A DNA stretch of 64,000 nt, from contig CAWAGE010000001.1 of the NCBI GenBank assembly GCA_963781695.1, positions 79,127 to 143,126 of the forward strand, read 5' to 3'. A program made the translations under genes and the position numbers. The stretch comes from an uncultured Actinomycetota bacterium (GTDB lineage: Bacteria > Actinomycetota > Actinomycetes > Propionibacteriales > Nocardioidaceae). Positions 492 to 54,121 of this stretch are shown piece after piece; position 1 is the first letter of the stretch; every line of letters starts with the position of its first letter. The notes beneath the pieces are model-generated. The model had not been told where the DNA came from. It worked only from the letters and a program-made list of their open reading frames with translations, and ran no database searches.

Positions 492-1282
492 GACGGCGAC
501 GCCGGCCCGGACCCGAGCCGGTCGACGCCCGGGGCGGAGCTCCGGACTGCCGGTGAGACGGTGCCGGCCCCGTGCCCGGCCGATCTCACCAGCAGCCCGA
601 AGACGGTTCCCAGCGTCAGCCACATGGCACCGAGCTGGGCGATCGAGGCGACCCGGAAGTCCCACAGCAGCTCCGCCGGGACGTCGGCGGGGACTCGGTC
701 CTGGGTCGAGGGCAGCGCCCACAGCACCAGGGCGACGAGCACGACGACCACGAGCACGTCCGCGCTGCGGCGTACCGGCCCGGCGCTGCCCCGGGCCGCC
801 AGCCACCGGTCGAGCGAGGCGGTGACCACCACGACGAGCAGCCCGAGCAGCACCACGAGCACGTAGAGGAGCGTCCGGCGGGTGACGGTCCCGGGGTCGC
901 CGACCGCCGGCGGGTTCGCCGGCACCGCGACGGCGGGCAGCAGCGTCAGCGTCGCGAACCCGAGGGCCGCCAGCGCCAGCGACCGAGCGTGGTCACCTCC
1001 GCCGGGGAGGCGGGGCCGGGCGCGGGCGAACACCACCGCGAAGACCACGCCGACCAGCACACCGACGACCGCGGCGGTCGCCGCGCCCACCAGCACCTGG
1101 GCGGTGCGGGAGACCAGCACCTCGCTGTGGTCGTGGCCCGCGGCACCGTCCCGGGCGGCCTCGACCAGCAGCGCACGACGGATCACCGGCTCGGTCACCA
1201 GCAGCATCGTCGCGGTGGCCACCGAACCCGCCGCGGCCCCCGCGAGGGCTCCGGCACGCAGCAGCCGCGACCAGCGGATCAC
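488..1282 (-). CDS. cbtA: cobalt transporter subunit CbtA family
   Basis: Multi-TM protein with EPVIRRALLVE, HDH, PANPPAVGDP and LLWDFRVAS motifs; follows cbtB. Confidence 0.88.
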   Translation of the reverse strand: MIRWSRLLRAGALAGAAAGSVATATMLLVTEPVIRRALLVEAARDGAAGHDHSEVLVSRTAQVLVGAATAAVVGVLVGVVFAVVFARARPRLPGGGDHARSLALAALGFATLTLLPAVAVPANPPAVGDPGTVTRRTLLYVLVVLLGLLVVVVTASLDRWLAARGSAGPVRRSADVLVVVVLVALVLWALPSTQDRVPADVPAELLWDFRVASIAQLGAMWLTLGTVFGLLVRSAGHGAGTVSPAVRSSAPGVDRLGSGPASPS

Positions 1283-1292
1283 CGCGACCCCG

Positions 1293-1508
1293 CTAGTGGC
1301 AGGGGACGCCCAGCGCGTGCCGGGCGTCGTGGGTGAGCTCGTGCAGGTACGCCGCCTGGCCGGCGCTGAGCAGCGCGCCGTTCTCCTGGAGCAGGACGTA
1401 CACCGAGAGCAGGGCCACGGCGACCAGCGCCCACGCCCACAGCGGCACAGCGACCGGAGCGGCGGGACGGAGCGGGGTGACGGGTGCAGCGAACACAGGC
1501 TTGGTCAC
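1293..1508 (-). CDS. cbtB: cobalt transporter subunit CbtB
   Basis: 71 aa, one TM helix, C-terminal LHELTHDARHALGVPCH. Confidence 0.9.
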   Translation of the reverse strand: MTKPVFAAPVTPLRPAAPVAVPLWAWALVAVALLSVYVLLQENGALLSAGQAAYLHELTHDARHALGVPCH

Positions 1509-1549
1509 GACAGGACCATTCCTTCCATACCTCGTGGACAGATCACGCC

Positions 1550-1739
1550 GCAGCCGGTCTCCTGGCTTCCGGATCGATGCCCTCCTCCTGCCTTCCCAGC
1601 GCCTGGACGCCAGTGGCAGATCACCCGTCGCGACCCCACCCGGCAGACCGGGTCGGCTCGTTCCGGGGGAGGGGACTCCCCGGTCACAGTGGCGAGGACC
1701 ACGCCGGAATCACACCGGCTTCCCGAACACTGCGGCTGC
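1550..1739 (-). ncRNA. cobalamin riboswitch
   Basis: Minus strand reads GGGAAGCCGGTGTGATTCCGGCG..GCCACTGTGA..GCCACTG..GGGAAGG..AAGCCAGGAGACC. P1 GCAGCCG/CGGCTGC closes the element; it lies upstream of cbtB. Confidence 0.93.
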
Positions 1740-1820
1740 CGGAACCCTCTCACACCGCTGCGGCCAGCGGGAAGGGCGCAACGGCGCGTGCCGCGCGTCG
1801 GTTGTGGGCAGGAGGGAGCC

Positions 1821-3029
1821 ATGACCGACCTGTTCGACGCCCCCGAGCCCGACGAGACCGACGATCGCAGTCCCGGAGTGGTCGCCGGCGGCACCGGCGA
1901 CGGCCGGCGAGAGCTGCCGCCGTTCCGCGCCGACCACGTCGGCAGCCTGCTGCGGCCGCCCGACCTGCTCCAGGCACGTGCCCGGCACGCCGCCGGCGAG
2001 ATCGACGCCGACGCGCTGCGGGAGGTCGAGGACCGCTCGGTGGCGGAGGCGGTGGCGCTCCAGCGGGACGCCGGGCTGCAGACCGCGACCGACGGCGAGC
2101 TGCGGCGGACGTCGTGGCACATGGACTTCATCTACCAGCTCGACGGGGTCGACCCGACCGACGAGACGCTGGAGGTGCACTTCCGCAACGCCGAGGGCGA
2201 CCTCGACTTCGAGTCGGCGGCGCCCCGGGTGCACGACCGGGTGGGGCTGAGCCGCACGGTCTTCGGTGACGCGTTCGCCTTCCTCGCCGAGACGGTCCGG
2301 CAGACGGCTCCCGGGCTGACCCCGAAGCTGACGATCCCCTCGCCCAGCATGGTCCACTACCGGGGCGGCCGCGCCGCGATCGACGAGAGCGTCTACCCCG
2401 ACCTGGAGCCGTTCTGGGCCGACCTGTCCGCGGCGTACGCCGAGCAGGTGCGTCGCGTGGCCGACCTGGGCTGCAGGTACCTCCAGCTGGACGACACCAG
2501 CCTGGCCTACCTCAACGACCCGGAGCAGCGCGAGCTGATGGCCGCGCAGGGCGCCGACCCCGAGCACCAGCACGAGCAGTACATCCGCACGATCAACGCC
2601 GCCGTCGCGGACCGGCCCGACGGCCTGCGCGTCACCACGCACCTGTGTCGCGGCAACTACCGCTCGTCGTGGGCGGCGCAGGGCGGCTACGACTTCGTCG
2701 CGGAGGCGCTGTTCTCCGAGCTCGCGGTGGACGGCTTCTTCCTGGAGTACGACGACGAGCGATCCGGGGGCTTCGAGCCGTTGCGGTTCGTGCCGAAGGG
2801 CAAGCAGGTGGTGCTCGGCCTGGTCACCACCAAGCACGGGAGGCTGGAGGACAAGGACACCCTGCGTCGACGGATCGACGAGGCAGCGCAGCACGTCGAC
2901 CTCGACCAGCTGTGCCTGTCCCCGCAGTGCGGCTTCTCCTCGACCGTCGAGGGCAACACGCTGACCTTGGCGGAGGAGCAGGCGAAGCTGCGGCTGGTCG
3001 TCGAGGTGGCCGAGGACGTCTGGGGCTGA
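1821..3029 (+). CDS. short single-barrel MetE-like methyltransferase (cobalamin-independent methionine synthase II family, YxjH-like)
   Basis: RADHVGSLLRP, TDGELRR, Zn ligands THLCRG / LEYD / SPQCGF; RBS GGAGGGAG before ATG 1821; 402 aa. Confidence 0.85.
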   Translation: MTDLFDAPEPDETDDRSPGVVAGGTGDGRRELPPFRADHVGSLLRPPDLLQARARHAAGEIDADALREVEDRSVAEAVALQRDAGLQTATDGELRRTSWHMDFIYQLDGVDPTDETLEVHFRNAEGDLDFESAAPRVHDRVGLSRTVFGDAFAFLAETVRQTAPGLTPKLTIPSPSMVHYRGGRAAIDESVYPDLEPFWADLSAAYAEQVRRVADLGCRYLQLDDTSLAYLNDPEQRELMAAQGADPEHQHEQYIRTINAAVADRPDGLRVTTHLCRGNYRSSWAAQGGYDFVAEALFSELAVDGFFLEYDDERSGGFEPLRFVPKGKQVVLGLVTTKHGRLEDKDTLRRRIDEAAQHVDLDQLCLSPQCGFSSTVEGNTLTLAEEQAKLRLVVEVAEDVWG

Positions 3030-3276: not shown

Positions 3277-3873
3277 TCAGCCGAAGAGGCGTCGCCCGCA
3301 CACCGGCCAGGGGCTGGAGCCGGACCGCGAGAACAGTGCCTGCGCCCGGGCCGTCTGCTCGCCGGCGGAGGCCCGGCTCGGCAGGCCGCGGCCGCCGACG
3401 GAGCGCCAGGTGCTGGGGCTGAACTGGTAGAGCCCGTAGTAGCCGGCCGGGTTGACTGCGCGCGGGTTGCCGCCGGACTCGCAGCGGGCCAGCGCGCCCC
3501 AGTTCAGACCGCCGACGCGACCGCCGGCGCGCGAGGGGCGGTTCGAGCGGCTCGGCGTGGCGCGGCCCTTGACGCTGCGCCACAGCATCTTGCCGACCAG
3601 GCCGGTACGACGGCGCTGGTGGGCGGCCTGCCAGCGGACGACGGCGCGGCGGGTGCTCTTCCCGTAGTAGCCGGAGGCGGGACGCACGTGCAGGTAGCGC
3701 TGCAGCGCGACGACCCGGGCGCCCTGGCTGCCGGGAGTCAGCACGATGTAGGAGCTGCGCCCGGTGCGGGCCTGGGCGGAGCCGGCGACACCGAACGTGC
3801 CGGCGACGACGGCCAGGACGAGAACAAGGGTGGTGAGCAGCCGGTGGCTGCGAGAAGGCAGGCGAAAGCGCAT
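3277..3873 (-). CDS. rpf: resuscitation-promoting factor (Rpf lytic transglycosylase) with signal peptide and peptidoglycan-binding domain
   Basis: Signal peptide; PGSQGARVVALQRYL PG-binding motif; WGALARCESGGN..YYGLYQF..TW Rpf domain. Confidence 0.9.
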   Translation of the reverse strand: MRFRLPSRSHRLLTTLVLVLAVVAGTFGVAGSAQARTGRSSYIVLTPGSQGARVVALQRYLHVRPASGYYGKSTRRAVVRWQAAHQRRRTGLVGKMLWRSVKGRATPSRSNRPSRAGGRVGGLNWGALARCESGGNPRAVNPAGYYGLYQFSPSTWRSVGGRGLPSRASAGEQTARAQALFSRSGSSPWPVCGRRLFG

Positions 3874-3883
3874 CGTGACCTCG

Positions 3884-4050
3884 ACGACGCCTGCGAAGTG
3901 AGCTGTCGGGTTCGGGCCGTAGAGGCTGGCCCGGCCGCTGGTGCGGCTTCACCCCAAGGACGACGTGGTGCCGGTGTCGCCCGGAAGTGGGTCCCCCGCT
4001 CCTGCTCCGGAGGTACGGGACCCGGCCACGGGAGCAGGATTAGGCGTCGC
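3884..4050 (-). ncRNA. cyclic di-AMP (ydaO/yuaA) riboswitch
   Basis: Minus strand reads CGCCTAATCCTGC..GCAGGAGCGGGGGACCC..TTGGGGTGAAGCC..CCGAACCCGACAGCTCACTTCGCAGGCG, directly upstream of rpf (a typical actinobacterial pairing). Confidence 0.92.
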
Positions 4051-25419: not shown

Positions 25420-26823
25420 TCAGGCGGGGTCGAGCGCGGAGCCGGGCAGGCCGCGGATGGAGGCGTCGAGGACCTCGATGGTGTGGGCCATGCCCATGGG
25501 GTGACCGGACCGCTGGATCGCGGAGGTCACCTGCATCAGGCACCCGGGGTTGGCGGTGACCAGCACCTTCGCCCCGGTGGCGACGATGTTCGCCGCCTTG
25601 CGGTCCCCCAGCTCACGGGCAGGCACCGGGTTGAGGATGTTGTAGATGCCGGCGGACCCGCAGCACAGCTCGGGCTCGGCGATCTCCTTCAGCTCCAGCC
25701 CCGGGATGGCGGTGAGCAGCCGCCGCGGCTGCGCCCGCACCCCCTGGGCGTGGGCCAGGTGGCAGGCGTCGTGGTAGGCGACGGTCGTCTCGAGCGGGTG
25801 CCGGACCGCTACCGGGCCCAGCTCGTCGAGGATCTCCGAGACGTCACGGACCCGCTCGCTGAAGCTCCTGGCACGCTCGGCGTACGCCGGGTCGTCGGCC
25901 AGCAGCACGGCGTACTCCTTCATGGTGGAGCCGCAGCCGGCCGCGTTGACCACGACCCAGTCGACCCCGGCCGCCTCGAACGTGTCGACGATCCCCCGGG
26001 CGAACTGCTGGGCCTCCTGCTCGCGCCCGTTGTGCGTGGACAGCGCCCCGCAGCAACCCTGCCGCCGTGGCGTGACCACGTCGCAGCCCTCGGCCTGCAG
26101 CACCCTGGCGGTGGCGGCGTTCACTCCGGGGAAGAACGCTCCCTGGACGCACCCGGTGAGCAGCCCGACCACGGCTCGGCGCTGGCCCGTGGCGGGCACT
26201 CGCTCCGGGATCGGCTCGGGCCGGTCGAGCCGCGGTGCGAGGCTCTCCATCGCGGCCAGCTGCGGGGACAGCCGCTCCAGCAGCCCGGTCCGTCGCAGCG
26301 CCCGGTCCAGGCCGGTGCGCTGCACTGCGCGCAGCGGCCCGCGCAGCAGCCGGAGCCGTCGGGGGTGCGGGAACAGCGAGAAGATCAGCGCACGCAGCGC
26401 CCGGTCGGAGGGCTCCCGGTCGTGGCGCCGCTCCACCTGCGCACGGGTCTGCTCGATGAGCCGGTCGTACTGCACCCCGGACGGGCACGCGGTGACGCAG
26501 GCCATGCAGCCCAGACAGGCGTCGAAGTGGGAGACCATCGAGTCGGTCATCGGCTCGCCCTCGAGCCCCTCCTTCATGAGGTAGATCCGACCGCGCGGGG
26601 AGTCCATCTCCTCGCCCCACAGCACGTACGTCGGGCAGGTGGGCAGGCAGAAGCCGCAGTGCACGCAGTCGCCGATGAGCGCCGCGTCCGGCGGGTGGTG
26701 CTCGTCGAAGGCGCCGCCGGCCACGGGCATCCCGAGGTCGATGATGCTGCCGGTCTCACCGAGGGCCGCGCCCGCGTCGGCCTCCTCGGCGGACCGGTCG
26801 GGGGTGCTGGTCGGGGTGCTCAT
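25420..26823 (-). CDS. glcF: glycolate oxidase Fe-S subunit
   Basis: CVHCGFCLPTCPT, DSPRGRI, CLGCMACVTACPSGV, two CCG domains. Confidence 0.88.
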   Translation of the reverse strand: MSTPTSTPDRSAEEADAGAALGETGSIIDLGMPVAGGAFDEHHPPDAALIGDCVHCGFCLPTCPTYVLWGEEMDSPRGRIYLMKEGLEGEPMTDSMVSHFDACLGCMACVTACPSGVQYDRLIEQTRAQVERRHDREPSDRALRALIFSLFPHPRRLRLLRGPLRAVQRTGLDRALRRTGLLERLSPQLAAMESLAPRLDRPEPIPERVPATGQRRAVVGLLTGCVQGAFFPGVNAATARVLQAEGCDVVTPRRQGCCGALSTHNGREQEAQQFARGIVDTFEAAGVDWVVVNAAGCGSTMKEYAVLLADDPAYAERARSFSERVRDVSEILDELGPVAVRHPLETTVAYHDACHLAHAQGVRAQPRRLLTAIPGLELKEIAEPELCCGSAGIYNILNPVPARELGDRKAANIVATGAKVLVTANPGCLMQVTSAIQRSGHPMGMAHTIEVLDASIRGLPGSALDPA

Positions 26824-28127
26824 CAGATTCCTCCCACGAAGCGGCCCGGCGAGAGCCGGTGGTCCGGGTCGAACTGGTCCTTGACGCGGCGCATCAGGTC
26901 GAGCGCGGGCACCGGGCCCCACAGGTCCACGGCCTGCTTCACCGCCGGTGGCGCGTCCACGACGACCGCGTGGCCCTCGTGCCGGCGGGCGGCGGCCCGC
27001 AGCCGGTGGACGGCCGTGACCACCTCCTCGGTCGGCATCCCGGCGGGCAGCGCCGCATGCACGACCCCGCTCCCGGCCGAGCCGCGCACGTGCGCGCCGA
27101 CCGAGCCGGCGACGCCCAGCACGTGGGCCAGCCCCGACAGCACGAAGGTGAGCCTCAGGCCGGTGTCGCGCTCGCCGTCCCGGCCGAACGGGTACGCCCC
27201 CCACCCCTCGGGCGCGGTCTCGCCCACGGCAACGGTGTCGCTGCCGGTCGCGGCGGCGCCGAGCAGCGTGGCGAGGGTTCTCGCGCGCCCGTCGACGGCG
27301 TCCTGGCGGCCCTCGAGCAGCACGCTCACCGAGCCGCTGACCGAGTCGGCTCCCCGGCCGGCTGCCGGACGGCCACCGACCACCGGCCACTCGACCTCGA
27401 CGGCGCCGGGCACCACCTGGGAGTGCACCGCCGCCTGGACGACGGCGGCAGCCCGGTCCGGGCCGCCGACCTCGACGGTGACCCAGCGCCGCGCCTGCGG
27501 CAGCGGGTGCAGCCGGAACAGCGCCTCGGTGACCACGGCCAGGGTGCCGGCCGAGCCGATCAGCAGCTTGCCCAGGTCGTAGCCGGCCACGTTCTTCACC
27601 ACGCGGCCGCCGGCCTTGGCCACCACGCCGTCGGCGCGGACGACGGTGAGCCCGATCAACAGGTCCCGCGCGGTCCCGGCTGTCAGCCGGGCCGGTCCCG
27701 AGGCGTTGGCGGCCAGCGTCCCGCCGACGCTGGCCCCGGGCACCGTCTCGTCGAGGTGCAGCCGCTGGCCCCCGCGGGCGACGACGTCTTGGAGGTCGCG
27801 CAGACGGGTGCCTGCCTGCGTGGCCACGATCAGGTCACCGGCGGCATGCTCGAGGACCTGGTCCATCGCGGACAGGTCGACGACGAGGTCGGCCGAGCGC
27901 GGCGGCATCCCCCACGACAGCTTGGTGCCGTGACCTCGCGGCACCACGGTGAGCCCGTGGCCGGCAGCGGCCCGCAGCACCTCGGCGACCTGCTCGGTGG
28001 TGGCGGGCCTGGCCACGACGGCCGGGGCGACGCCGTCGACCAGGTCCGACTCGCCGGCGTCGCGGACGTCGGCGCAGGCCGAGCCGACGGCCTCGCGGGC
28101 CGAGGTCGAGACGGTGGTGGTGCTCAT
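26823..28127 (-). CDS. glcE: glycolate oxidase FAD-binding subunit
   Basis: HAAGDL, GGRVVKNVAGYDL, VKDQFDP; lies between glcD and glcF. Confidence 0.88.
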   Translation of the reverse strand: MSTTTVSTSAREAVGSACADVRDAGESDLVDGVAPAVVARPATTEQVAEVLRAAAGHGLTVVPRGHGTKLSWGMPPRSADLVVDLSAMDQVLEHAAGDLIVATQAGTRLRDLQDVVARGGQRLHLDETVPGASVGGTLAANASGPARLTAGTARDLLIGLTVVRADGVVAKAGGRVVKNVAGYDLGKLLIGSAGTLAVVTEALFRLHPLPQARRWVTVEVGGPDRAAAVVQAAVHSQVVPGAVEVEWPVVGGRPAAGRGADSVSGSVSVLLEGRQDAVDGRARTLATLLGAAATGSDTVAVGETAPEGWGAYPFGRDGERDTGLRLTFVLSGLAHVLGVAGSVGAHVRGSAGSGVVHAALPAGMPTEEVVTAVHRLRAAARRHEGHAVVVDAPPAVKQAVDLWGPVPALDLMRRVKDQFDPDHRLSPGRFVGGI

Positions 28128-29668
28128 CAGAACACCTCCGCCAGGCCGGCTTCCTGCAGCGGGTGGGCCCCCTGGTGCCGACCCGGCACCTCACCGCACA
28201 GCCGTGGGGTCGGGAACACCTTGCCGGGGTTCGAGAGGTGGCGCGGGTCGAAGGCGCACCGGACCAGCTGCATGGTGTCGAGATCCTCCTCGCTGTACAT
28301 GCGCGGCATGTACTTCGCCTTGTCCATGCCGACCCCGTGCTCGCCGGTGATCGACCCGCCGTGCTCGATGCAGAGGTCGAGGATCGCGCCGCTGACCCTC
28401 TCGGCGGCCTCCCCCTCGCCCTCCTTGGAGTCGTCGAAGAGCACCAGCGGGTGCAGGTTGCCGTCGCCCGCGTGGAACACGTTGGCGACCCGCACCCCGG
28501 ACGTCCCGGACAGCTCCGCGATCGCGGTCAGCACCTCGGGCAGCGCGGTCCGCGGGATCACGCCGTCCTGGACGATGTAGTCGGGGCTGATCCGGCCCAC
28601 CGCGGCGAACGCGGACTTGCGGCCCTTCCAGATCAGCGCACGCTCGGTCGGGTCGGTGGCCAGCCGCAGCTCGAAGGAGCCGTTCTCCCGGCACAGCCGC
28701 TCGACCTCGTCGTACTCCGCGGCCACCTCGGCGGCCGCGCCGTCGAGCTCGATGACCAGGACGGCGCCGGCTCCCTGGGGGTAGCCGCACTGCACCGCGG
28801 CCTCGGCGGCCTCGATGGCCAGGGCGTCCATCATCTCGATGGCGGCCGGGACGATGCCGGCGGCGATGATCGCCGAGGTGGCCGCTCCGGCCTGGTCCGT
28901 GCTCGCGAAGCCCACGAGCAGGGTGCGGACCTCCTCCGGGAGGCGGGTCAGCCGGACGGTGACGCTGGTCACCACCCCAAGGGTCCCCTCCGAGCCCACC
29001 ACGGCGCCGAGCAGGTCGTAGCCGGGGGCGTCCGGGGCCGCGCCGCCGAGCTGGACGACGTCTCCCTGCGGGCTGACGAACTCGGCACCGAGGACGTGGT
29101 TGGTGGTGAAGCCGTACTTCAGGCAGTGCGCGCCGCCGGAGTTCTCCGCGACGTTCCCGCCGATCGAGCAGATCTGCTGGCTGGAGGGGTCCGGCGCGTA
29201 GTAGTAGCCCTGTGGCGCGACCGCCTTGGTCACGTCGAGGTTGATGACCCCGGGCTCGACCACCGCGCGCTGGTCCTCGATCCGCACCTGGCGGATGGCG
29301 CGCATCCGCGAGGTGACCACGAGCACGCCCTCGGCGTGCGGGAGGGCACCGCCCGAGAGCCCCGTCCCGGCTCCACGGGCGACGAACGGGACGCCGTGCT
29401 CGGCACAGGCCCGGACGACGGCTGCCAGCTGGCGGGTGTCCTCGGGCAGCACGACGAGGGCCGGGGTCACCCGGTAGTGGGCCAGCCCGTCGCACTCGTA
29501 CGTGCGCAGCCGGGTGTGGTCGTCGATCACACCTGCCGCCGGGAGCAGCTCCCGGGCGAGGGCGGCCACGGCCGCGATCCCCGGCGCCGTGCCGACGGCC
29601 GCGGTAGTCGTCGGGCTGCTCGTCGGGGCGGTCGTGCCGCGTGCCTCGGGCTGCCGGTCGGTGACCAT
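28127..29668 (-). CDS. glcD: glycolate oxidase subunit GlcD (FAD-linked oxidase)
   Basis: YECDG, PDPSSQQICSIGGN, HCLKYG, HAGDGNLHP, GEHGVG. Confidence 0.9.
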   Translation of the reverse strand: MVTDRQPEARGTTAPTSSPTTTAAVGTAPGIAAVAALARELLPAAGVIDDHTRLRTYECDGLAHYRVTPALVVLPEDTRQLAAVVRACAEHGVPFVARGAGTGLSGGALPHAEGVLVVTSRMRAIRQVRIEDQRAVVEPGVINLDVTKAVAPQGYYYAPDPSSQQICSIGGNVAENSGGAHCLKYGFTTNHVLGAEFVSPQGDVVQLGGAAPDAPGYDLLGAVVGSEGTLGVVTSVTVRLTRLPEEVRTLLVGFASTDQAGAATSAIIAAGIVPAAIEMMDALAIEAAEAAVQCGYPQGAGAVLVIELDGAAAEVAAEYDEVERLCRENGSFELRLATDPTERALIWKGRKSAFAAVGRISPDYIVQDGVIPRTALPEVLTAIAELSGTSGVRVANVFHAGDGNLHPLVLFDDSKEGEGEAAERVSGAILDLCIEHGGSITGEHGVGMDKAKYMPRMYSEEDLDTMQLVRCAFDPRHLSNPGKVFPTPRLCGEVPGRHQGAHPLQEAGLAEVF

Positions 29669-29693
29669 GCCGAGCGCCTCACTTTCGTCCACA

Positions 29694-29708
29694 TTCCACA
29701 TGGCAGAA
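29694..29708. promoter_or_regulatory. putative IclR operator upstream of glcD
   Basis: TTCCACATGGCAGAA matches the TTC-N9-GAA dyads upstream of glcB. Confidence 0.55.
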
Positions 29709-29790
29709 GAAGATTTCCGCAACCGCACCTTAGGGTGTGCTCCGCGTCACCTCCAAACCGGTGCGTGCCGGAGCGACCCGTCGTCCCGGC

Positions 29791-30219
29791 TCAGTCGGGC
29801 TGGGCGACCAGCCCGGCGCGCCCGATCCCCGCGACGGCGGCCGCCTCGTCGTTGTCCGAGGTGTCCCCGGTGACGCCGACCGCACCCAGCAGGGCGCCGT
29901 CCGCGTCGCGGACCAGCACCCCTCCGGGCACCGGGACCAGCGACCCGCCGACGGCCGAGGTCACCGCGGCGACGAAGTACGGCTGCTGCTCGGCGCGGGC
30001 CATGATCGAGCGCGACCCCATCCCCAGCGACAGGGCCCCGGACGCCTTGCCGACGGCGATCTCGAACCGGCTCATCGACGACCCGTCCTCGCGCTCGGCG
30101 GCCACGACGTGGCCTCCCGGGTCGAGGACGACCACGGTCAGCGGCTTCAGGCCCGCGTCGGCCGCGTGCTCGCGGGCACCGGCGACGATGCTCCGGGCGG
30201 TGTCCAGGTCGATGCTCAT
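29791..30219 (-). CDS. glcG: GlcG/HbpS-family heme-binding protein
   Basis: VVLDPGGH, IAVGKA, GGVLV..GAVGVTG; ATG overlaps the glcB stop. Confidence 0.88.
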   Translation of the reverse strand: MSIDLDTARSIVAGAREHAADAGLKPLTVVVLDPGGHVVAAEREDGSSMSRFEIAVGKASGALSLGMGSRSIMARAEQQPYFVAAVTSAVGGSLVPVPGGVLVRDADGALLGAVGVTGDTSDNDEAAAVAGIGRAGLVAQPD

Positions 30220-32396
30220 CACGAGGCCTTCCGCTCGGTGGTCTTCCGGCTGGCCCGCCGGCGGTGGAGGATCGGCTCGGTGTAGCCGCTCGGCTGGCGC
30301 AGGCCCTCGAGGACCAGCTCCCGAGCCGCCAGGAACGCCTCGCCGTCGAAGCCTGGCGCCATCGCCTGGTAGGTCGGGTCGGCGGCGTTCTGCTCGTCGA
30401 CCACCGACGCCATCCGGCGCAGCGTCTCCTCGACCTGGTCGGTGCTGACGACGCCGTGGTGCAGCCAGTTCGCCACGTGCTGGGCGGAGATCCGGCAGGT
30501 CGCGCGGTCCTCCATCAGCGGCTCGCCGGTGATGTCGGGGACCTTGGAGCACCCGATGCCGGCGTCGACCCAGCGGACGACGTACCCGAGCAGGCTCTGG
30601 AGGTTGTTGTCGATCTCGGCCTGACGGTCCTGCTCGGACCAGGTGGCCGGGTCCCCCAGCGGGATGGCCAGCAGGTCGGACCGCCGCGCCCGACGTCCAC
30701 CGGCCCGCAGCTCCTCCTGGCGCGCTCGCACGTCGACCTGGTGGTAGTGGGTCGCGTGGATCGTGGCCGCGGTCGGCGACGGCACCCAGGCGCAGCTCGC
30801 ACCGGCCCGCGGATGCCCGATCTTGGCCTCCAGCATGTCGGCCAGGCTGTCGGGCGCTGCCCACATCCCCTTGCCGATCTGGGCGCGACCGAGCAGTCCG
30901 CACTCCAGGCCGATGTCGACGTTGGAGTCCTCGTAGGTCTTGATCCAGGTCTCGCCCTTCATGTCGTTCTTGCGGACGACTGGCCCGGCCAGCATCGAGG
31001 TGTGGATCTCGTCTCCGGTGCGGTCCAGGAAGCCGGTGTTGATGAACACGACCCGATCCCGGGCGGCCTCGATGCAGGCCTTCAGGTTGAGGCTCGTGCG
31101 ACGCTCCTCGTCCATGATGCCGACCTTGACGGTCAGCGGCGGCAGCCCGAGGACCTGCTCGACCCGGCCGAAGAGCTCGACGGCGAAGGCGACCTCCTCG
31201 GGACCGTGCATCTTCGGCTTCACGACGTACATCGAGCCGGTGCGCGAGTTCGCCAGCTCCGACTCGCCTCGCAGGTCCCGCATGCTGCCGAGCGCGGTGA
31301 CCAGGGCGTCGAGGATGCCCTCGGGCACCTCGTTGCCGTCGCGGTCGAGCACCGCGTCGGTGGTCATCAGGTGGCCGACCTGGCGGATGAACAGCAGGGA
31401 CCGGCCCCGCAGCGCGACCTCGCCACCGCCCGGTGCGGTGTAGCGGCGATCCGGGTTCATCGCCCGGGTGAAGGTCCTGCCGTTCTTGGTGACCTCCTCC
31501 GCGAGCGTGCCGCCCATCAGCTGCAGCCAGTTGCGGTACCCGACGACCTTGTCCTCGGCGTCCACCGCGGCCACGGAGTCCTCGAGGTCCATGATCGTGG
31601 ACACCGCGGACTCCAGCACCAGGTCCTTCACGCCGGCGGCGTCGGTGGAGCCGATCGGGTCGGAGCGGTCGACCGCGATCTCGACGTGCAGGTGGTGGTG
31701 CACCAGCACCACAGCCTCCGGCGCGCTCGCCTCGCCCCGGTAGCCCACCAGCTGCGAGGGGTCGGCGAGCCGGACCACGCCCTCCTTGAGGGTGACGGCC
31801 AGCCCCTCGTCGTCCACGGCGTACGACGTGGCGTCGGCGTGGGAGCCGCTCGCCAGCGCGAAGCCCTCGTCGAGCAGCGCCCGCCCGCGGGCGATGACCT
31901 CGGCGCCGCGGACGGCGTTGTAGGTGTCGGCCGGCGCCAGGTCGCCCTCACGGGGGATCACGTCGGACCCGTAGAGCGCGTCGTAGAGCGAGCCCCAGCG
32001 GGCGTTCACTGCGTTCGTGGCGAAGCGCGCGTTCAGCAGCGGGACCACCAGCTGCGGGCCGGCGACCAGGGCCACCTCGTCGTCGACGTTCTCGGTGCCG
32101 ACCGTGACCTCGGCGGGCTCCTCGAGCAGGTAGCCGATCTCGGTGAGGAACGCGGCGTAGGCCTCCGGGTCCGGAATGCCGGGCCGCTCGGCGTGGAAGG
32201 CGTCGATCCGGGTCTGCAGCTCGTCGCGACGGGCGAGCAGCTCGCGGTTACGCGGCGCCAGGTCGTGGATCAGCGCGTCGGCACCGTCCCAGAACACCTG
32301 GGGGTCCACACCCGAGCCGGGCAGGGCCTCCTCGGTGATGAAGCGGTGAAGGCTGTCAGCGACGCTGAGGCCGCCGGTCTGCACGCGGTTGTCCAT
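30219..32396 (-). CDS. glcB: malate synthase G
   Basis: [43 protein letters not shown]. Confidence 0.95.
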
Positions 32397-32415
32397 GCCA
32401 GTCCCTTGCATCGAA

Positions 32416-32478
32416 TTCCGTCACGTGGAAGTTATATTCTCACTGACGGAAACTAGGCACCCAACGCCCCGTTGTCAA
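32416..32478 (-). promoter_or_regulatory. sigma-A promoter of glcB with two putative IclR operators
   Basis: Minus strand TTGACA (32473-32478), N17, TAGTTT (32450-32455); dyads TTCCGTCACGTGGAA (32416-32430) and TTCTCACTGACGGAA (32437-32451). Confidence 0.75.
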
Positions 32479-32580
32479 CCGGCTCGTCACGTCCTACCGG
32501 ATGGAACCGTCCGAGGCATGCCCCCTCGACGGCCGGGGTAACGCCACCGTCCACCCCCTTCCCGGACAGGAGACCAGGAC

Positions 32581-33588
32581 ATGCGCTGCCCCGCTGCCCG
32601 TGGCGACCTCGGCTCGATGCTGCGCAGCGCGCTGCTCGGTCGCACCGAGCTCGAGACCAGCCCCTTCGCCGAGATCGCCGCAGCCGTCCCCGACGACCGG
32701 CTGCTCTCCGACGACGACGCCCAGCTCACGCTGTGGACGCTCTACGAGCTGCACTACCGCGGCTTCAGCGACGTCTCGGCCGACCGGGAGTGGGACCCAT
32801 CGCTGCTGGCGGCCCGTCGGGTGCTGGAGACGGCCTTCGAGCGGGCGCTGCGGGCCCGGACCGGGACGGTGGTAACCCGGGCGCTCGCCGCGCCCGGCAC
32901 CCTGGCGGAGCGGGTCTTCGCCATGGTCGCCGCCGACGACGGCCCCGCCCTCGCGGCCTACCTGCACCGCCGGGCCACCCGGGAGCAGGTCGTGGAGTTC
33001 CTGCGCGAGCGCAGCGTCTTCCACCTCAAGGAGTCCGACCCGCAGACGTTCGTGCTGGCCCGGCTGGACGGACCGGCCAAGACCGCGCTCGCGGAGCTGC
33101 TGTACGACGAGTTCGGGGGCGGACGGCCCGAGCGGCTGCACGCCACGATGTTCGCCGACACCCTGCGGGCGGCAGGGCTGGACGCCCGCTACGGCACCTA
33201 CGTGGAGGAGGTCGACGCGACGACCCTGGCGGTCAACAACGCCATGTCGCTGTTCGGCCTGCACCGCCGGCTCCGTGGGGCCGCGATGGGACACCTGGCC
33301 GCGTTCGAGGCGACCAGCTCGGTGCCGTCGCGCAAGATCGCGGCCGGCCTGCGCCGGGTCGGCCTCCCCGAGGCGGCCGCGCTGTACTTCGACGAGCACG
33401 TGGAGGCCGACTCCGTCCACGAGCAGCTCGCGGTGCGCTCCATCTGCGAGTCGCTGGTGGCGGCCGACCCTGCGCTGGAGCGCGACGTGCTGTTCGGGGT
33501 CGCCACCTGCCTGGACCTCGACGCCCTGGCCGGCGCCGTCCAGCTGTCCCGGTGGCAGGACGCCCCGGCCGTCGCGGTGGCATCGTGA
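32581..33588 (+). CDS. heme-oxygenase-like diiron enzyme (iron-containing redox enzyme family)
   Basis: HLKESDP, YDEFGGG..RLH, AFEATS, FDEHVEADSVH metal-ligand pattern. Confidence 0.85.
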   Translation: MRCPAARGDLGSMLRSALLGRTELETSPFAEIAAAVPDDRLLSDDDAQLTLWTLYELHYRGFSDVSADREWDPSLLAARRVLETAFERALRARTGTVVTRALAAPGTLAERVFAMVAADDGPALAAYLHRRATREQVVEFLRERSVFHLKESDPQTFVLARLDGPAKTALAELLYDEFGGGRPERLHATMFADTLRAAGLDARYGTYVEEVDATTLAVNNAMSLFGLHRRLRGAAMGHLAAFEATSSVPSRKIAAGLRRVGLPEAAALYFDEHVEADSVHEQLAVRSICESLVAADPALERDVLFGVATCLDLDALAGAVQLSRWQDAPAVAVAS

Positions 33589-33824
33589 CCGGCCACTGGC
33601 GTCACGAGCCCGACGTCACCCCGGTGGCCGACCCCGAGAACGCACCGATGGTGGTCGAGGAGTGCCCGGACGGCCCGCTCCTGCTGCGCGGCGCCGCGGG
33701 CGTGCTCGACCAGGACGGCGTCCTGCACGAGGCCGCCCGCCCGGTGGTGGCGGTCTGCCGGTGCGGCCGCTCCCAGCGCCGCCCGTGGTGCGACGGCACC
33801 CACAAGGCGGTGCGTCGTGACTGA
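33585..33824 (+). CDS. CDGSH (2Fe-2S) domain protein
   Basis: CPDGPLLLRG and CRCGRS..PWCDGTH; GTG overlaps the upstream stop. Confidence 0.88.
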   Translation: MTGHWRHEPDVTPVADPENAPMVVEECPDGPLLLRGAAGVLDQDGVLHEAARPVVAVCRCGRSQRRPWCDGTHKAVRRD

Positions 33825-34431
33825 GACGATGGGCTTCGGCGGGCTCGCCATCGCCTTCGACGACCGGGTGCTGCGTCCCCGACCCTGGACGCTCGCGCAG
33901 TCGGCGTGGGCCGCGGAGCTGGCAGCCACCGTCCCTGCCGGGCCCGCGCTCGAGCTGTGCTCCGGCGCCGGGCACATCGGGCTCGCGTTCGCGGCCACCT
34001 CCGGGCGGCGCCTCGTCATGGTGGATGCCGACCCGACGGCCTGCCGGTTCGCCCGCGGCAACGTCGCGTCCGCCGGGCTGTCGGCACGGGTCGAGGTCCG
34101 CACCGGCGACCTCGCCCGGGCACTGGCCACCGACGAGCGGTTCGCCGTCGCCATCGCCGACCCGCCCTACCTCCCCTCCGCCGAGACCTCCCGCTTCCCC
34201 GAGGACCCGCTGGCCGCCGTCGACGGCGGCCGGGACGGCCTCGCCGTCGCCCGCGCGTGCCTGGAGGTGCTCGAGGCGCACCTGGCCGACGGTGGCGTCG
34301 CGGTCCTGCAGCTGCGCGACGCGAGCCAGGCGGCCGCGGTCACCGACCATCTCGCCCGGAGCACCGGCCGACTCCGGGCGGTGGAGAGCCGCGTCGTCGG
34401 AGACGGCGCGCTGGTGCAGCTGCGCTGCTGA
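33817..34431 (+). CDS. HemK/MTQ2-like class I SAM methyltransferase
   Basis: LELCSGAG, ADPPY, VDGGRDG. Confidence 0.85.
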   Translation: MTETMGFGGLAIAFDDRVLRPRPWTLAQSAWAAELAATVPAGPALELCSGAGHIGLAFAATSGRRLVMVDADPTACRFARGNVASAGLSARVEVRTGDLARALATDERFAVAIADPPYLPSAETSRFPEDPLAAVDGGRDGLAVARACLEVLEAHLADGGVAVLQLRDASQAAAVTDHLARSTGRLRAVESRVVGDGALVQLRC

Positions 34432-34519
34432 GCCCGGGCGCGTCCCTACGGGGCCACCGCGACGCCCGGGATCCTGACCCCGGAGGACCTCGTCCCTGAC
34501 GTCCGCCCAGAATCCCGTC

Positions 34520-36772
34520 ATGACCTCCGGTACCGACCCCGTCCGCACGATCCACCTCCGGCGCGGCGGGACCAGTCTCGTGCTCCGTCTCGATGAGCAC
34601 TGGCTGCCCTGCGTCCTGCACTGGGGCCCCGACCTCGGCGAGCTGACGGCCGACGAGCTGGCGAGCCTGCTGCGGTCGACGCGGATGCCCTTCGTGGACA
34701 GCCACCTGAACTCCCAGGAGGCCGTGGCCGTGCTGCCGCAGCACTCCTCGGGTTGGCTCGGGCGCCCCGGGCTGCTCGGCAGCCGTGACGGGCGTGCGTG
34801 GTCGGTGGACTTCGACCAGGTGACCCACCTGGTCCAGGAGCGGGGTGACCGGCAGTGGCCCGACGGTCCGGTCGGGGCGGTGCGGCTGCTCAGCACCGGG
34901 GTCGACCGCCGCTGCGGCGTGAGCGTGGCGACCGAGCTGGAGCTGGGCGAGTCGGGCCTGGTGCGGCTGCGCGCCTCGGTGACCAACGACGGCGACGAAA
35001 CCTACGAGGTCGTCCACCTCGAGCCCGCCCTCCCCGTCCCGGCCGACGCCACCGAGGTCCTCGACATGGGCGGCCGCCACACGCACGAGCGGACCCCGCA
35101 ACGCCGCACGCTGGGGATCGGGCAGTGGACCCGCGAGGCGTGGGGCGGAAGGCCCGGTCACGACGCCGCGACCGTGCTGTGCGCCGGCGAGCCCGGCTTC
35201 GCGTTCCGGTCCGGCCGGGTCTGGGGCGTGCACCTCGCCTGCAGCGGCAACCAGGTGGTGACCGCCGAGAGCACCAACGGCGGCTGGCGGCTGCTGCGAG
35301 GCGGGGAGCGGCTGCTGCCCCGCGAGGGCACGCTGGCCCCCGGTGGCACGTACACCTCGCCGTGGCTGCTCGGCTCCTGGGGCGAGGGGCTCGACGAGTT
35401 CTCTCACCGCTTCCACCGGTTCCTGCGCTCCCGGCCGCAGCACCCGTCTCGGCCCCGGCCGGTGCTGCTCAACACCTGGGAGGCGGTGTACTTCGACCAC
35501 GACCTCGACACGCTGCTCGAGCTGGCGGACCGGGCCGCGGAGATCGGCATCGAGCGGTTCGTGCTCGACGACGGTTGGTTCCGGGGCCGCCGCGACGACC
35601 ACGCCGGCCTCGGCGACTGGTACGTCGACGAGTCGGTGTGGCCCATGGGCCTGCATCCGCTCGTGGACCGGGTCCACACCCACGGCATGGAGTTCGGCCT
35701 CTGGTTCGAGCCCGAGATGGTCAACCTCGACTCCGACCTCGCGCGCGACCACCCCGAGTGGCTGTTCGCGACCGAGCACGGGCCCGGGATCTCCTCCCGC
35801 TTCCAGCACGTGCTCGACCTGGGCCACCCCGAGGCCTACGACTACGTCCGCGACCGGGTCTCGAGCCTGGTCGAGGAGTACGGCATCGCCTACCTCAAGT
35901 GGGACCACAACCGGCCACTGGTCGACGCCGGTCACTCCCCGACCTTCGAGCCCGGCGTCCACGTCCACACCGAGGCTCTGTACCGGCTGCTGGCCGAGCT
36001 GCGGCGCGCCCATCCCGGCCTGGAGATCGAGTCCTGCTGCGGTGGCGGCGGCCGAATCGACCTCGGCATCCTGGAGCACACCGACCGGGTGTGGGTCTCG
36101 GACTGCATCGACGCCCACGAGCGGCACCGGCTGGTGAGGTGGACCGGCCTGACGCTGCCGCCGGAGCTGATGGGGACCCACGTCGGGTCAGGGCAGGACC
36201 ACAGCACCGGTCGCCTGCTGGGGCTGGACTTCCGCGCCGGAACCGCGATGTGGGGCCACCTCGGTGTGGAGTGGGACCTGACCACCGCCGAGGAGGGCCA
36301 GCGGGCGCGGCTCGCGGAGTGGATCGCGTTCCACAAGGAGCACCGTTCGCTGCTGCACACCGGCACGGTGGTCCACGCCGACCTGGCCAACGACGCCCTG
36401 GCTCTGGAGGGCGTGGTGGCCGCCGACGGCAGCCGGGCACTGTACCGACTCTCGGCCCTGGACCACTCCGCGGTGTGGCCGCCCGGCCGCGTCCCCCTGC
36501 CCGGCCTCGACCCGCAGCGGACCTACGAGGTCTCGATCGCCCCCCCGGGCGGCACGGCGCTCGCCGACCAGCCGCCGGCCTGGCGGGGGCAGCCCCTGGT
36601 GCAGCGTGGGAGGCTGCTCGACGAGGTCGGGGTCCAGGCGCCGCTCGTCCAGACCGACCAGCTCGTGCTGATCAGCGCGCAGGCGGTCGCAGCGAAGCCC
36701 GCCGGCCCGGCGACCCGGTCCGCCGACCAAGATCGGGCTCAGCGGCTCGACGGCCCGGCGGCTCGGCGTTGA
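34520..36772 (+). CDS. alpha-galactosidase, GH36
   Basis: LLNTWEAVYF, FVLDDGWF, FGLWFEPEM, YLKWDHN, RVWVSD. Confidence 0.92.
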   Translation: MTSGTDPVRTIHLRRGGTSLVLRLDEHWLPCVLHWGPDLGELTADELASLLRSTRMPFVDSHLNSQEAVAVLPQHSSGWLGRPGLLGSRDGRAWSVDFDQVTHLVQERGDRQWPDGPVGAVRLLSTGVDRRCGVSVATELELGESGLVRLRASVTNDGDETYEVVHLEPALPVPADATEVLDMGGRHTHERTPQRRTLGIGQWTREAWGGRPGHDAATVLCAGEPGFAFRSGRVWGVHLACSGNQVVTAESTNGGWRLLRGGERLLPREGTLAPGGTYTSPWLLGSWGEGLDEFSHRFHRFLRSRPQHPSRPRPVLLNTWEAVYFDHDLDTLLELADRAAEIGIERFVLDDGWFRGRRDDHAGLGDWYVDESVWPMGLHPLVDRVHTHGMEFGLWFEPEMVNLDSDLARDHPEWLFATEHGPGISSRFQHVLDLGHPEAYDYVRDRVSSLVEEYGIAYLKWDHNRPLVDAGHSPTFEPGVHVHTEALYRLLAELRRAHPGLEIESCCGGGGRIDLGILEHTDRVWVSDCIDAHERHRLVRWTGLTLPPELMGTHVGSGQDHSTGRLLGLDFRAGTAMWGHLGVEWDLTTAEEGQRARLAEWIAFHKEHRSLLHTGTVVHADLANDALALEGVVAADGSRALYRLSALDHSAVWPPGRVPLPGLDPQRTYEVSIAPPGGTALADQPPAWRGQPLVQRGRLLDEVGVQAPLVQTDQLVLISAQAVAAKPAGPATRSADQDRAQRLDGPAARR

Positions 36773-40689: not shown

Positions 40690-40771
40690 TGGCAGGTGAA
40701 GGATTCGAACCTTCGAAGGCTAAGCCGACGGATTTACAGTCCGCTCCCATTGGCCACTCGGGCAACCTGCC
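40690..40771 (-). tRNA. tRNA-Tyr (GTA)
   Basis: GGCAGGTTGCCCGAGTGGCCAATGGGAGCGGACTGTAAATCCG..GGTTCGAATCCTTCACCTGCCA; long variable arm; full CCA not encoded. Confidence 0.97.
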
Positions 40772-53472: not shown

Positions 53473-53787
53473 TCAGTGGGCCAGCTTGAGGCCGACCACG
53501 CAACCGATCAGGCCGACGATGAGCGCTACCTTCACAAGGCTCACCGACTCCGACCCGGTGACCATCCCGAACGCGACTGTCAGAGCCGCACCAATCCCGA
53601 CCCACACGGCATACGCGGTCCCGACAGGGAGACTTCGCATCGCGTGAGCCAGGCCGCCCATGCTGAGCACCAGTCCGACCAAGAAGACTAGGGACGGTGT
53701 GAGCCGCGAGAACCCTTCCGACTTGCCTAGGGCTACCGCCCACACGGCTTCGAGAACACCAGAGACAACGATAATCAACCACGCCAT
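53473..53787 (-). CDS. sugE: SMR-family guanidinium exporter Gdx (SugE)
   Basis: 104 aa, 4 TM, LEAVWA (conserved Glu), PVGTAYAVWVGIG. Confidence 0.92.
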   Translation of the reverse strand: MAWLIIVVSGVLEAVWAVALGKSEGFSRLTPSLVFLVGLVLSMGGLAHAMRSLPVGTAYAVWVGIGAALTVAFGMVTGSESVSLVKVALIVGLIGCVVGLKLAH

Positions 53788-53801
53788 GACGGACTCCTGT
53801 C

Positions 53802-53840
53802 GGCCGTCTTGTCGTGTCCGGGTACGGCTCCGTCGTCCGG
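53802..53840 (-). ncRNA. guanidine-III (ykkC-III) riboswitch
   Basis: Minus strand CCGGACGACGGAGCCGTACCCGGACACGACAAGACGGCC fits the ykkC-III pattern CCGGACGA..GCCGTACCCGG..GACAAGACGGC; immediately precedes the sugE SD. Confidence 0.88.
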
Positions 53841-54121
53841 CGAGCCTCATCGGCTCGTAGGCCGAGGATCTCACACGCCCATACGAGAGCACATTCGCGG
53901 ATACCCACTCTTGCCGCGTAGCGTGCGCTCGCAGACGCACAAACCGGACCCCAGCTGAGCAGACTGCTGAGTACAAGTAGCGACGGTCACCGCAGATCGT
54001 CCACGACACCGCCACCGACGATCTGCCACTCATGATCCAGTCGCTCGGGTGCGGTTCTCTGCGGTAGGCCATGTGAAAGCCGTCCCCCGGACACTCTCAT
54101 AACATTGGCCATATCGGTGGC

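Follow-up and report, generated by a model that had tools for sequence, protein, structure and literature searches.

We analyzed a 64,000-nucleotide (nt) stretch of DNA, about 72% G+C, from contig CAWAGE010000001.1 of an uncultured actinobacterium (the window, hereafter, is this whole stretch), and in it a cluster of three genes that encode a heme-oxygenase-like diiron oxidase/oxygenase (HDO), a CDGSH-type [2Fe-2S] protein, and a HemK-like methyltransferase. The nearest relatives of the window are Nocardioidaceae, and a search of sequencing runs matched it only in DNA runs from soil metagenomes. A first-pass annotation, made from the nucleotide sequence, had described three overlapping genes with a full diiron ligand set, a CDGSH cluster motif, and a DPPY N-methyltransferase motif. 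When the open reading frames (ORFs), overlaps, and motifs were read again, all were as described. The features of the locus, with protein lengths in amino acids (aa), are as follows.

32516 to 32521, + strand: GCATGC, -35-like element of the predicted SigB/SigF-type promoter (sequence read)
32536 to 32541, + strand: GGGTAA, predicted -10 element, 40 to 45 nt 5' of the HDO start codon (sequence read)
32568 to 32572, + strand: AGGAG, ribosome-binding site 8 nt before the ATG of the HDO gene (sequence read)
32581 to 33588, + strand: HDO, 335 aa (PF14518, E = 8e-58)
33585 to 33824, + strand: single-domain CDGSH [2Fe-2S] protein, 79 aa, GTG start (PF09360, E = 1e-14)
33817 to 34431, + strand: HemK-like class I S-adenosylmethionine (SAM)-dependent amino-methyltransferase, 204 aa, with DPPY as motif IV (PF05175 and TIGR03534-type matches, below curated cutoffs)

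The start codon of the HDO gene was set by a conserved N terminus, M-x-L-P-x-x-R-G, in an alignment of homologs. The GTG start of the CDGSH gene shares GTGA (4 nt) with the HDO stop, and the start of the methyltransferase gene overlaps the CDGSH end by 8 nt. Judged from these overlaps, the arrangement is best explained as a single operon with translational coupling of the three genes.

The HDO and its nearest relatives

The HDO scored 195.6 bits against PF14518 (Haem_oxygenas_2; gathering cutoff, 28.9), and its AlphaFold2 model was all-helical, with a predicted local distance difference test (pLDDT) score of 95.3 and a predicted template-modeling score (pTM) of 0.93. Seven residues, E151, E177, H187, E243, H273, D277, and H280, were invariant in 50 homologs that were 42 to 70% identical to the window HDO, as were many further residues besides these ligands. 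In a profile search against the PDB, the seven aligned one to one with SznF E189, E215, H225, E281, H311, D315, and H318. They make up a 3-His/4-carboxylate set that includes the three histidines and three carboxylates of core helices 1 to 3, and the full ligand set seen at first inspection was borne out. The extra glutamate, E151 in L-K-E-S-D-P, aligns with SznF E189 in S-E-A-S-P, and it falls at residues 149 to 152, where the auxiliary helix of the model is interrupted. Family score, model, and ligands together indicate that the window HDO is a member of the HDO superfamily with a seven-helix heme-oxygenase-like fold, and the model and alignment indicate that it carries the SznF-like extra-Glu signature on an interrupted auxiliary helix.

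The PDB profile search returned HrmI (8.8e-17), RohS (1.5e-12), and SznF (9e-11), with BesC at merely 0.015. A Foldseek search with the model gave the same neighborhood: HrmI (template-modeling [TM] score, 0.77) and SznF (0.73) were followed by FlcD and RohS (range, 0.69 to 0.77), and CADD and BesC scored around 0.5. The best match in both searches, the lysine N6-oxygenase HrmI/BelK (PDB 9N1A and 9NH9), aligned over its full length; it differs in that it has been described as a 3His/3carboxylate enzyme (PMC13108848) and belongs to a natural-product pathway with no dedicated partner. SznF of the streptozotocin pathway (PDB 6VZY) shares with the window HDO the fold, the seven ligands, and the extra Glu on a helix interrupted by a beta-turn with E-x-x-P, and in the SznF/SznE pathway a methyltransferase supplies an N-methylated substrate ahead of N-oxygenation. 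At about 20% identity to SznF, the window HDO has neither a cupin domain nor a biosynthetic cluster and has instead a CDGSH partner, a predicted stress-type promoter, and a HemK-like methyltransferase. Because identity to HrmI, RohS, SznF, FlcD, CADD, and BesC was just 16 to 21%, we infer the chemistry of the window HDO rather than regard it as demonstrated.

The 3His/4carboxylate set was first seen in SznF and has been proposed as a mark of heteroatom oxygenases (PMC7848743; PMC13108848). In the main text of McBride et al. (2021), uncharacterized clusters of a sequence similarity network (SSN) that keep the extra Glu are predicted to be heteroatom oxygenases; these "SznF-like" clusters hold actinobacterial HDOs with the same extra-Glu/beta-turn motif, and their cluster 1 has 1,780 sequences from Streptomyces and Mycobacterium (PMC7848743). 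The family of the window HDO is large (>5,700 matches among the candidates scored, and 481 clusters at 50% identity with E <= 1e-30), and it plausibly belongs to or overlaps such a cluster. Term searches of that main text for CDGSH, methyltransferase, and stress promoter returned no mention (PMC7848743). On the strength of its ligand signature, the window HDO is probably a heteroatom (N-) oxygenase. No characterized ortholog of the HDO or of the trio that might already explain these genes was found in the searched literature.

Conservation of the HDO-CDGSH pair

The CDGSH protein scored 54.9 bits against PF09360 (gathering cutoff, 29.5). Its motif, CRCGRSQRRPWCDGTH at residues 58 to 73, follows the pattern C-X-C-X2-S-X3-P-X-C-D-G-T-H, with C58, C60, C69, and H73 as predicted cluster ligands, and confirms the earlier reading of the second gene. 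The closest solved structures were the bacterial CDGSH proteins 3TBM and 3TBN, which, like mitoNEET-type proteins, have the same motif and the same size. To our knowledge, bacterial CDGSH proteins of the 3TBM and 3TBN type have structures but no assigned physiological partner; the window protein differs from them in having a genetically defined one, the HDO.

Linkage was assessed in a census of 80 loci that contained the closest HDO relatives, one genome per species. A CDGSH gene lay within 6 kb of the HDO gene in 78 loci, directly downstream on the same strand in 56 and farther downstream in 4; one of the two loci without it ends 86 nt past the HDO gene. Cluster ligands were intact in 77 of the 78 CDGSH neighbors, and 74 kept the strict motif. 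The 4-nt overlap with the HDO stop recurred in three other loci (L081, L085, and L088), and the pair was also carried by a Curtobacterium plasmid. Six protein clusters consisted of natural in-frame HDO-CDGSH fusions (P0143 and P0271 to P0275; 427 to 517 aa) from two lineages, Dermatophilaceae and relatives, with Pro-rich linkers (Pro/Val-rich) that are unlike between the two. The link drawn between HDO and CDGSH in the first-pass annotation is thus backed by adjacency in 78 of 80 loci and by the six fusion clusters, and the HDO-CDGSH pair is the conserved core of the module. Around one fusion gene, in a Dermatophilaceae metagenome-assembled genome (MAG) (L087, 6001-7518), we observed genes for ferritin/Dps-like (PF00210), DUF2277, DUF808, and MscS-like proteins.

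Adjacency in several arrangements together with natural fusion is a classic signature of proteins that work together, and we consider it likely that HDO and CDGSH are functionally paired. When a 3Cys-1His [2Fe-2S] protein adjoins a diiron enzyme that activates O2, electron donor is the simplest role for it, and the gene evidence suggests that the CDGSH protein probably feeds electrons to the HDO. Searches of the literature, including searches by PF14518 and by the name "iron-containing redox enzyme family," found no paper that joins HDOs and CDGSH proteins, and the only dedicated HDO redox partner they returned was MboB. The mangotoxin acetylenase MboA is an HDO that needs this genetically linked iron-sulfur partner for multiple turnovers, and MboA/MboB were described in 2026 as possibly the first dedicated HDO redox pair (PMC13185094). 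MboB differs in being a flavin/Fe2S2 NADH reductase resembling phthalate dioxygenase reductase rather than a CDGSH protein, and MboA in being a 3H/3C desaturase that acts on a tripeptide within a biosynthetic cluster. With its 79 aa and no flavin or NAD domain, the window CDGSH protein is not an MboB-type reductase, though by analogy it may work like MboB.

In several Micromonospora spp. (L041, L047, L050, and L080), an ORF of ~600 aa lies between the HDO gene and the CDGSH gene, and the latter runs antiparallel to the HDO gene and divergently from the gene of a group-3 sigma factor, a layout by which expression of CDGSH might become coupled to that sigma factor. The same layout bears on a different role for the CDGSH protein, namely, that it is not a reductant and instead donates iron or a cluster to load the HDO cofactor or serves as a redox or iron sensor, in the latter case as an input to SigB/F partner switching. 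Clusters of the NEET type can be transferred and are redox- and pH-labile, which is compatible with either task. HDO cofactors are themselves labile (PMC13108848), and genes for sigma factors, RsbW-like proteins, or STAS proteins lie beside the pair in about 10 to 15% of loci, the divergent Micromonospora genes among the arrangements that would fit a sensor. However, HDO requires Fe(II) and not a 2Fe-2S cluster, the full catalytic ligand set and conserved pocket point to an enzyme, and most loci have no adjacent regulatory gene. We consider a donor or sensor role quite improbable and electron delivery by the CDGSH protein the better explanation of the pair.

Methyltransferase, promoter, and neighboring genes

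The third gene has motif I LCSGAGHIG and DPPY at residues 115 to 118 (DPPW in relatives), in agreement with its original description as a HemK-like N-methyltransferase. Its best profile matches were PrmC/HemK (TIGR03534; 89.9 bits, curated cutoff 199.1), L3-glutamine, and HemK2/MTQ2 (TIGR00537; 50 bits, curated cutoff 87) methyltransferases, all far below cutoffs, and its nearest PDB structures were the RsmD-like 1WS6 and HemK, at about 1e-7. With the glutamine-N5 methyltransferases PrmC/HemK and HemK2/MTQ2, which are its best NCBIfam matches, it shares a class I fold and the PRP-x-T and (D/N)PP(Y/W) motifs; it differs from them in its scores far under the cutoffs, in having DPPY/DPPW instead of NPPY, and in lacking the N-terminal helical domain by which PrmC recognizes its release factor substrate, with alignments that begin at position 50 of TIGR03534 and at about residue 88 of HemK structures. 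On the cutoffs and the absent N-terminal domain, PrmC and HemK2 were rejected as its identity.

Of the 80 loci, 26 had a methyltransferase gene, which in 24 of them lay no more than about 1 kb from the pair; it was convergent in 16, codirectional downstream in 6, codirectional upstream in 1, and divergent in 3. All three methyltransferase homologs that were picked independently of HDO (from Arsenicicoccus, Aeromicrobium, and a JGI genome) adjoined an HDO-CDGSH pair, and one of these loci repeats the 4-nt and 8-nt overlaps of the window. In a distant clade whose HDOs are 39 to 46% identical (Streptomyces, Kitasatospora, Embleya, Streptantibioticus cattleyicolor, and Nocardia farcinica), a HemK2/MTQ2-type methyltransferase adjoined the HDO in all eight Streptomycetaceae and Nocardia loci examined. 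These enzymes have an NPPY motif, are 31 to 36% identical to the window methyltransferase, and in Streptomyces and Kitasatospora are named as HemK2/MTQ2 family members in RefSeq. A CDGSH gene was found in seven of the eight, either in the order methyltransferase-CDGSH-HDO or with HDO convergent with methyltransferase-CDGSH. The trio therefore occurs in at least four orders (Propionibacteriales, Micrococcales, Kitasatosporales, and Mycobacteriales) with shuffled gene order, which argues for selection on proximity and not for inherited synteny. Conservation of the trio, which the first-pass annotation had made the touchstone of its proposal, was found for the pair (78/80) and in part for the methyltransferase (26/80, and 8/8 in the distant clade). 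The methyltransferase is an accessory and frequent third member, not a universal partner.

The families closest to the methyltransferase (PrmC/HemK, HemK2/MTQ2, and RsmD) are protein or rRNA amino-methyltransferases, which raises the possibility that the enzyme methylates an amide or amino nitrogen on a protein or RNA target (a translation factor or the ribosome, for example) and that HDO-CDGSH hydroxylates or oxidatively removes the mark under stress. The lack of biosynthetic genes next to the module and a spread as wide as that of a housekeeping function would suit such a role. We nevertheless hold it to be unlikely: the methyltransferase falls under every curated family cutoff and is without the PrmC substrate recognition domain, the characterized HDOs of the SznF/HrmI/RohS branch all act on free amino acids or small amines, and the recurrent neighbors are small-molecule oxidoreductases (flavin adenine dinucleotide [FAD]-dependent amine-oxidase/DAO types, zinc-dependent alcohol dehydrogenases [Zn-ADHs], short-chain dehydrogenases/reductases [SDRs], and SRPBCC proteins). 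A small nitrogen-containing substrate remains the preferred assignment for HDO and methyltransferase alike.

The possible stress-sigma promoter of the first-pass annotation, GCAT-N16-GGGTAA (GCATGC-N14-GGGTAA) at 32516-32541, is present and recurs at orthologous genes. The conserved N terminus allowed the start codon to be placed in 57 HDO orthologs, and GGGTA occurred within 120 nt upstream of 35 of these (61%), compared to 54 of 456 (11.8%; Fisher P = 8e-16) for the other genes of these loci that had an upstream spacer of 60 nt or more. In a comparison with shuffled sequences, GGGTA was upstream of 37 of the 57 orthologs, whereas the shuffles had it in 9.1 on average and in 20 at most, and GCAT-N13-18-GGGTA was found in 11 of 57 upstream regions versus 0.13 expected from shuffles. 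The element fell into two position classes, one at about -40 with a ribosome-binding site and one at about -15, the latter as expected for leaderless transcripts. It also precedes Streptomyces methyltransferase-CDGSH-HDO and VOC-HDO operons and an SRPBCC-FAD oxidoreductase-methyltransferase operon.

Promoters mapped for nine SigB homologs of Streptomyces coelicolor have a -10 element GGG(T/A)A(T/C), in which the first GGG and A5 are nearly invariant, and a loose -35 element, GTTT or GNNT, 12 to 16 nt upstream; one validated promoter, SCO0566p, is GCATAA-N14-GGGTAT (PMC8346170). The -10 GGGTAA of the window agrees with this consensus, and its -35 GCATGC with a 14-nt spacer is compatible with the loose GNNT class and with SCO0566p but is not the canonical GTTT. 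A SigB/SigF-type general-stress promoter is the best explanation of this element, with dependence on such a sigma factor predicted from the motif. RNA data contributed little: Clavibacter RNA runs gave no usable transcription start sites (long, flat contigs), and a Micrococcus locus had one metatranscriptome match covering 5% of words. No CDGSH or HDO entry was found by name in the supplement on the SigF regulon of M. smegmatis. Scans of the window locus for sigma-70 promoters and terminators gave no match, and an Rfam scan of 32350-34600 found no known RNA element.

The survey of genes around the module took in, for each of the 80 loci, the two closest on either side (281 proteins in two batches). 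They matched about 145 Pfam families per batch, and, the methyltransferase excepted, about 15% of loci was the most in which any one gene accompanied the pair. Commonest were FAD-dependent oxidoreductases of the DAO or amine-oxidase type, SDRs, formaldehyde-dehydrogenase-like Zn-ADHs, and SRPBCC proteins, which at times share an operon with the HDO or the methyltransferase; some of the FAD oxidoreductases have a Rieske domain and some are CrtI/CrtO-like, all below curated cutoffs. Consistent with a promoter of the SigB/SigF type, 9 of the 80 loci had a group-3 sigma factor gene as one of the two nearest, and genes for STAS, RsbW-like, GAF-ANTAR, Hsp20, CsbD, hemerythrin, DUF2267, SRPBCC, and YdaD-like SDR proteins recurred near the pair; the window locus itself has no such regulator gene. 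Genes for GAF-ANTAR RNA-binding regulators adjoined the module in 7 of the 80 loci and were also seen at L083 and L084 (both Aeromicrobium fastidiosum), L085 (the JGI genome), and L092 (Streptomyces sp. CA-256286).

Neighbors such as Mn-catalase, Dps/ferritin, OsmC, and hemerythrin, and the apparent membership of the module genes in a stress regulon, invite the alternative that HDO and CDGSH carry out a substrate-free detoxification, reducing H2O2, O2, or nitric oxide (NO) during stress in the manner of rubrerythrin or a flavodiiron protein. A diiron domain combined with a small Fe-S domain, sometimes in one polypeptide, parallels rubrerythrin, and some HDOs form a peroxo intermediate without substrate (PMC13108848). 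Against this, a conserved methyltransferase partner is hard to account for, invariant residues beyond the ligands suggest a defined pocket, and the nearest relatives are substrate-specific N-oxygenases. Detoxification is an unlikely function by our estimate, and a substrate-specific oxygenation agrees better with the pocket and the partner.

The closest characterized relatives of the HDO all serve natural-product pathways, and the trio might by that token be one piece of a cluster that makes a nitro, N-hydroxy, or N-nitroso product, with the HDO acting as SznF, HrmI, and RohS do. No nonribosomal peptide synthetase (NRPS), polyketide synthase (PKS), or precursor peptide gene was found among the neighbors in the 80-locus census, as had been remarked of the window, where neither a precursor peptide nor other biosynthetic genes are adjacent. 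We rejected a biosynthetic cluster on this census, in which none of the Pfam families was core biosynthetic machinery. One locus offers a hint of another kind. On a plasmid of Kitasatospora sp. NBC_00039 (L094, 1884-5942), genes for a YbdK-family carboxylate-amine ligase, a dimethylargininase, and the HDO follow one another codirectionally and closely spaced; the string is convergent with a HemK2/MTQ2 methyltransferase gene followed by a CDGSH gene, and STAS, RsbW-like, SRPBCC, and CsbD genes adjoin. This locus speaks for a specialized product, and it suggests a link to methylated guanidines that stays isolated because a dimethylargininase occurred in only 1 of 99 loci. That single occurrence also counts against a specialized-metabolite step, as do the presence of the module in thousands of genomes among otherwise unrelated neighbors without NRPS, PKS, or ribosomally synthesized and posttranslationally modified peptide (RiPP) precursor genes and its position in the window between glycolate/malate synthase genes and an alpha-galactosidase gene. 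We regard such a step as highly improbable and return to the module as a stress-regulon unit.

In the window, the trio is flanked 5', on the opposite strand, by malate synthase G and glycolate-oxidase-like genes and 3' by a GH36 alpha-galactosidase gene. Neither flank is conserved along with the trio: malate synthase G is common only to the closest MAG (L001) and the alpha-galactosidase to no other locus, and a link between the trio and its flanking genes was rejected. The 5' genes form a glycolate-utilization-like cluster (26823-32411, - strand) divergent from the HDO operon, with two FAD-linked oxidase subunits (26823-28127 and 28127-29728), a GlcG/DUF336-like protein inside the ORF 29791-30903, and malate synthase G (30219-32411), the sole member that was compared with Pfam. 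Elsewhere in the window, all on the - strand, Rfam matches marked a guanidine-III riboswitch (53799-53861; 48.7 bits), a cobalamin riboswitch (1535-1744; 70.9 bits), a c-di-AMP (ydaO-type) riboswitch (3873-4037; 63.5 bits), and a tRNA gene (40690-40771; 55.2 bits). The guanidine-III riboswitch lies directly 5' of the gene for a SugE/Gdx-type small multidrug resistance protein of ~105 aa (MAWLIIVVSGVLEAVWAVALGK..., 53473-53790, - strand), which is the usual arrangement for guanidinium export. The c-di-AMP riboswitch abuts the start of a 198-aa ORF (3277-3873, - strand) with a signal-peptide-like N terminus. A predicted + strand ORF at 882-3029, a product of crude gene calling, is probably spurious because the cobalamin riboswitch lies within it.

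Proposed function and what it would mean

We propose that the module is a stress-regulon, two-component diiron oxygenase in which the CDGSH protein serves as reductant, and that an accessory N-methyltransferase works on the same, probably nitrogen-containing, substrate, a reading that we think has an even chance of proving right as a whole. The operon would be transcribed from the SigB/SigF-type general-stress promoter with its translation coupled. The HDO would be an O2-activating diiron enzyme of the SznF/HrmI/RohS-like branch, and the 3Cys-1His [2Fe-2S] cluster of the CDGSH protein would be its dedicated one-electron carrier, returning the diferric HDO after each turnover to the diferrous, O2-reactive state. 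Reduced HDO would then bind O2 to form a peroxo-diferric species and oxidize a small-molecule substrate that probably contains nitrogen. The HemK-like methyltransferase would N-methylate the same substrate or its product, by analogy to SznE, which acts before SznF.

Several observations weigh against this proposal. For the oxygenase, the N-oxygenase assignment rests on the ligand signature and 18 to 20% identity; HrmI, the closest fold, has no carboxylate at the extra-Glu position of the alignment, and FlcD, another of the near fold neighbors, is no simple N-oxygenase. For the pair, the CDGSH gene is on the opposite strand in 18 of the 80 loci (11 downstream and 7 divergent upstream), and in Arthrobacter pigmenti (L089, 6001-7892) the HDO has no CDGSH gene within 6 kb. 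The operon encodes no reductase for the CDGSH protein, and most characterized HDOs turn over with generic reductants. When a natural fusion (P0143, with 36 sequences) was modeled with AlphaFold2, the HDO part folded well, but pLDDT values of <50 in the linker and CDGSH part meant that neither an interface nor an Fe-Fe distance could be read. For the third gene, about two-thirds of the closest loci have no methyltransferase gene next to the pair, and the (D/N)PP(Y/W) class of methyltransferases usually acts on proteins or nucleic acids. The first-pass interpretation is supported in each of its parts that is open to comparative genomics; of its "self-contained oxidase-reductant-methylase unit," the gene linkage stands, whereas "self-contained" is not borne out by an operon that encodes no reductase for the CDGSH protein. 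At the A. pigmenti locus, we observed in the place of CDGSH a gene for a 282-aa GT2-like membrane protein that overlaps the HDO gene by 4 nt, and Mn-catalase, SDR, and luciferase-like genes upstream of the HDO.

A bolder version of the proposal is that the module is a stress-induced switch of nitrogen methylation and oxidation, in which the HemK-like enzyme methylates an amide or guanidino nitrogen and the CDGSH-powered HDO N-hydroxylates or oxidatively removes the methylated nitrogen. The target might be a protein such as a translation factor or a free metabolite resembling methyl-arginine. The hints come from single loci or small subsets: the dimethylargininase and carboxylate-amine ligase genes beside the HDO in one operon, formaldehyde-dehydrogenase-like Zn-ADH genes in operons with the module, and the DAO-type FAD/Rieske oxidoreductases. 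We see this version as a long shot. If it were true, the output of the module would be a mark that can be reversed or a small signal of the N-oxy or NO type, controlled by SigB/F, and bacterial CDGSH proteins would have a first physiological role.

The component families are already known, and HDO clusters with the extra Glu had already been flagged as predicted N-oxygenases. The searched literature held no description of a conserved or fused CDGSH partner, of a recurrent HemK-like third gene, or of a conserved stress promoter. A reaction is known for only about a dozen HDOs, and before 2026 none had a dedicated redox partner (PMC13108848; PMC13185094). What the present analysis adds is a large HDO family, thousands of actinobacterial proteins with an N-oxygenase-type ligand signature, that is genetically tied, and in some members fused, to CDGSH.

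HDO and CDGSH are two small soluble proteins, and the module is open to direct testing. If the CDGSH protein is the physiological reductant, the pair would represent a second and very different kind of electron delivery to HDOs and a two-protein system ready for turnover in vitro, the point at which attempts to assign functions to orphan HDOs usually stall. A concrete function for bacterial CDGSH/NEET proteins would follow as well. The conserved promoter, if it is of the SigB/SigF type as predicted, suggests osmotic stress, oxidative stress, and stationary phase as conditions in which to seek the product, and it would place an O2-dependent diiron oxygenase and a methyltransferase within the general stress response of the actinobacteria.

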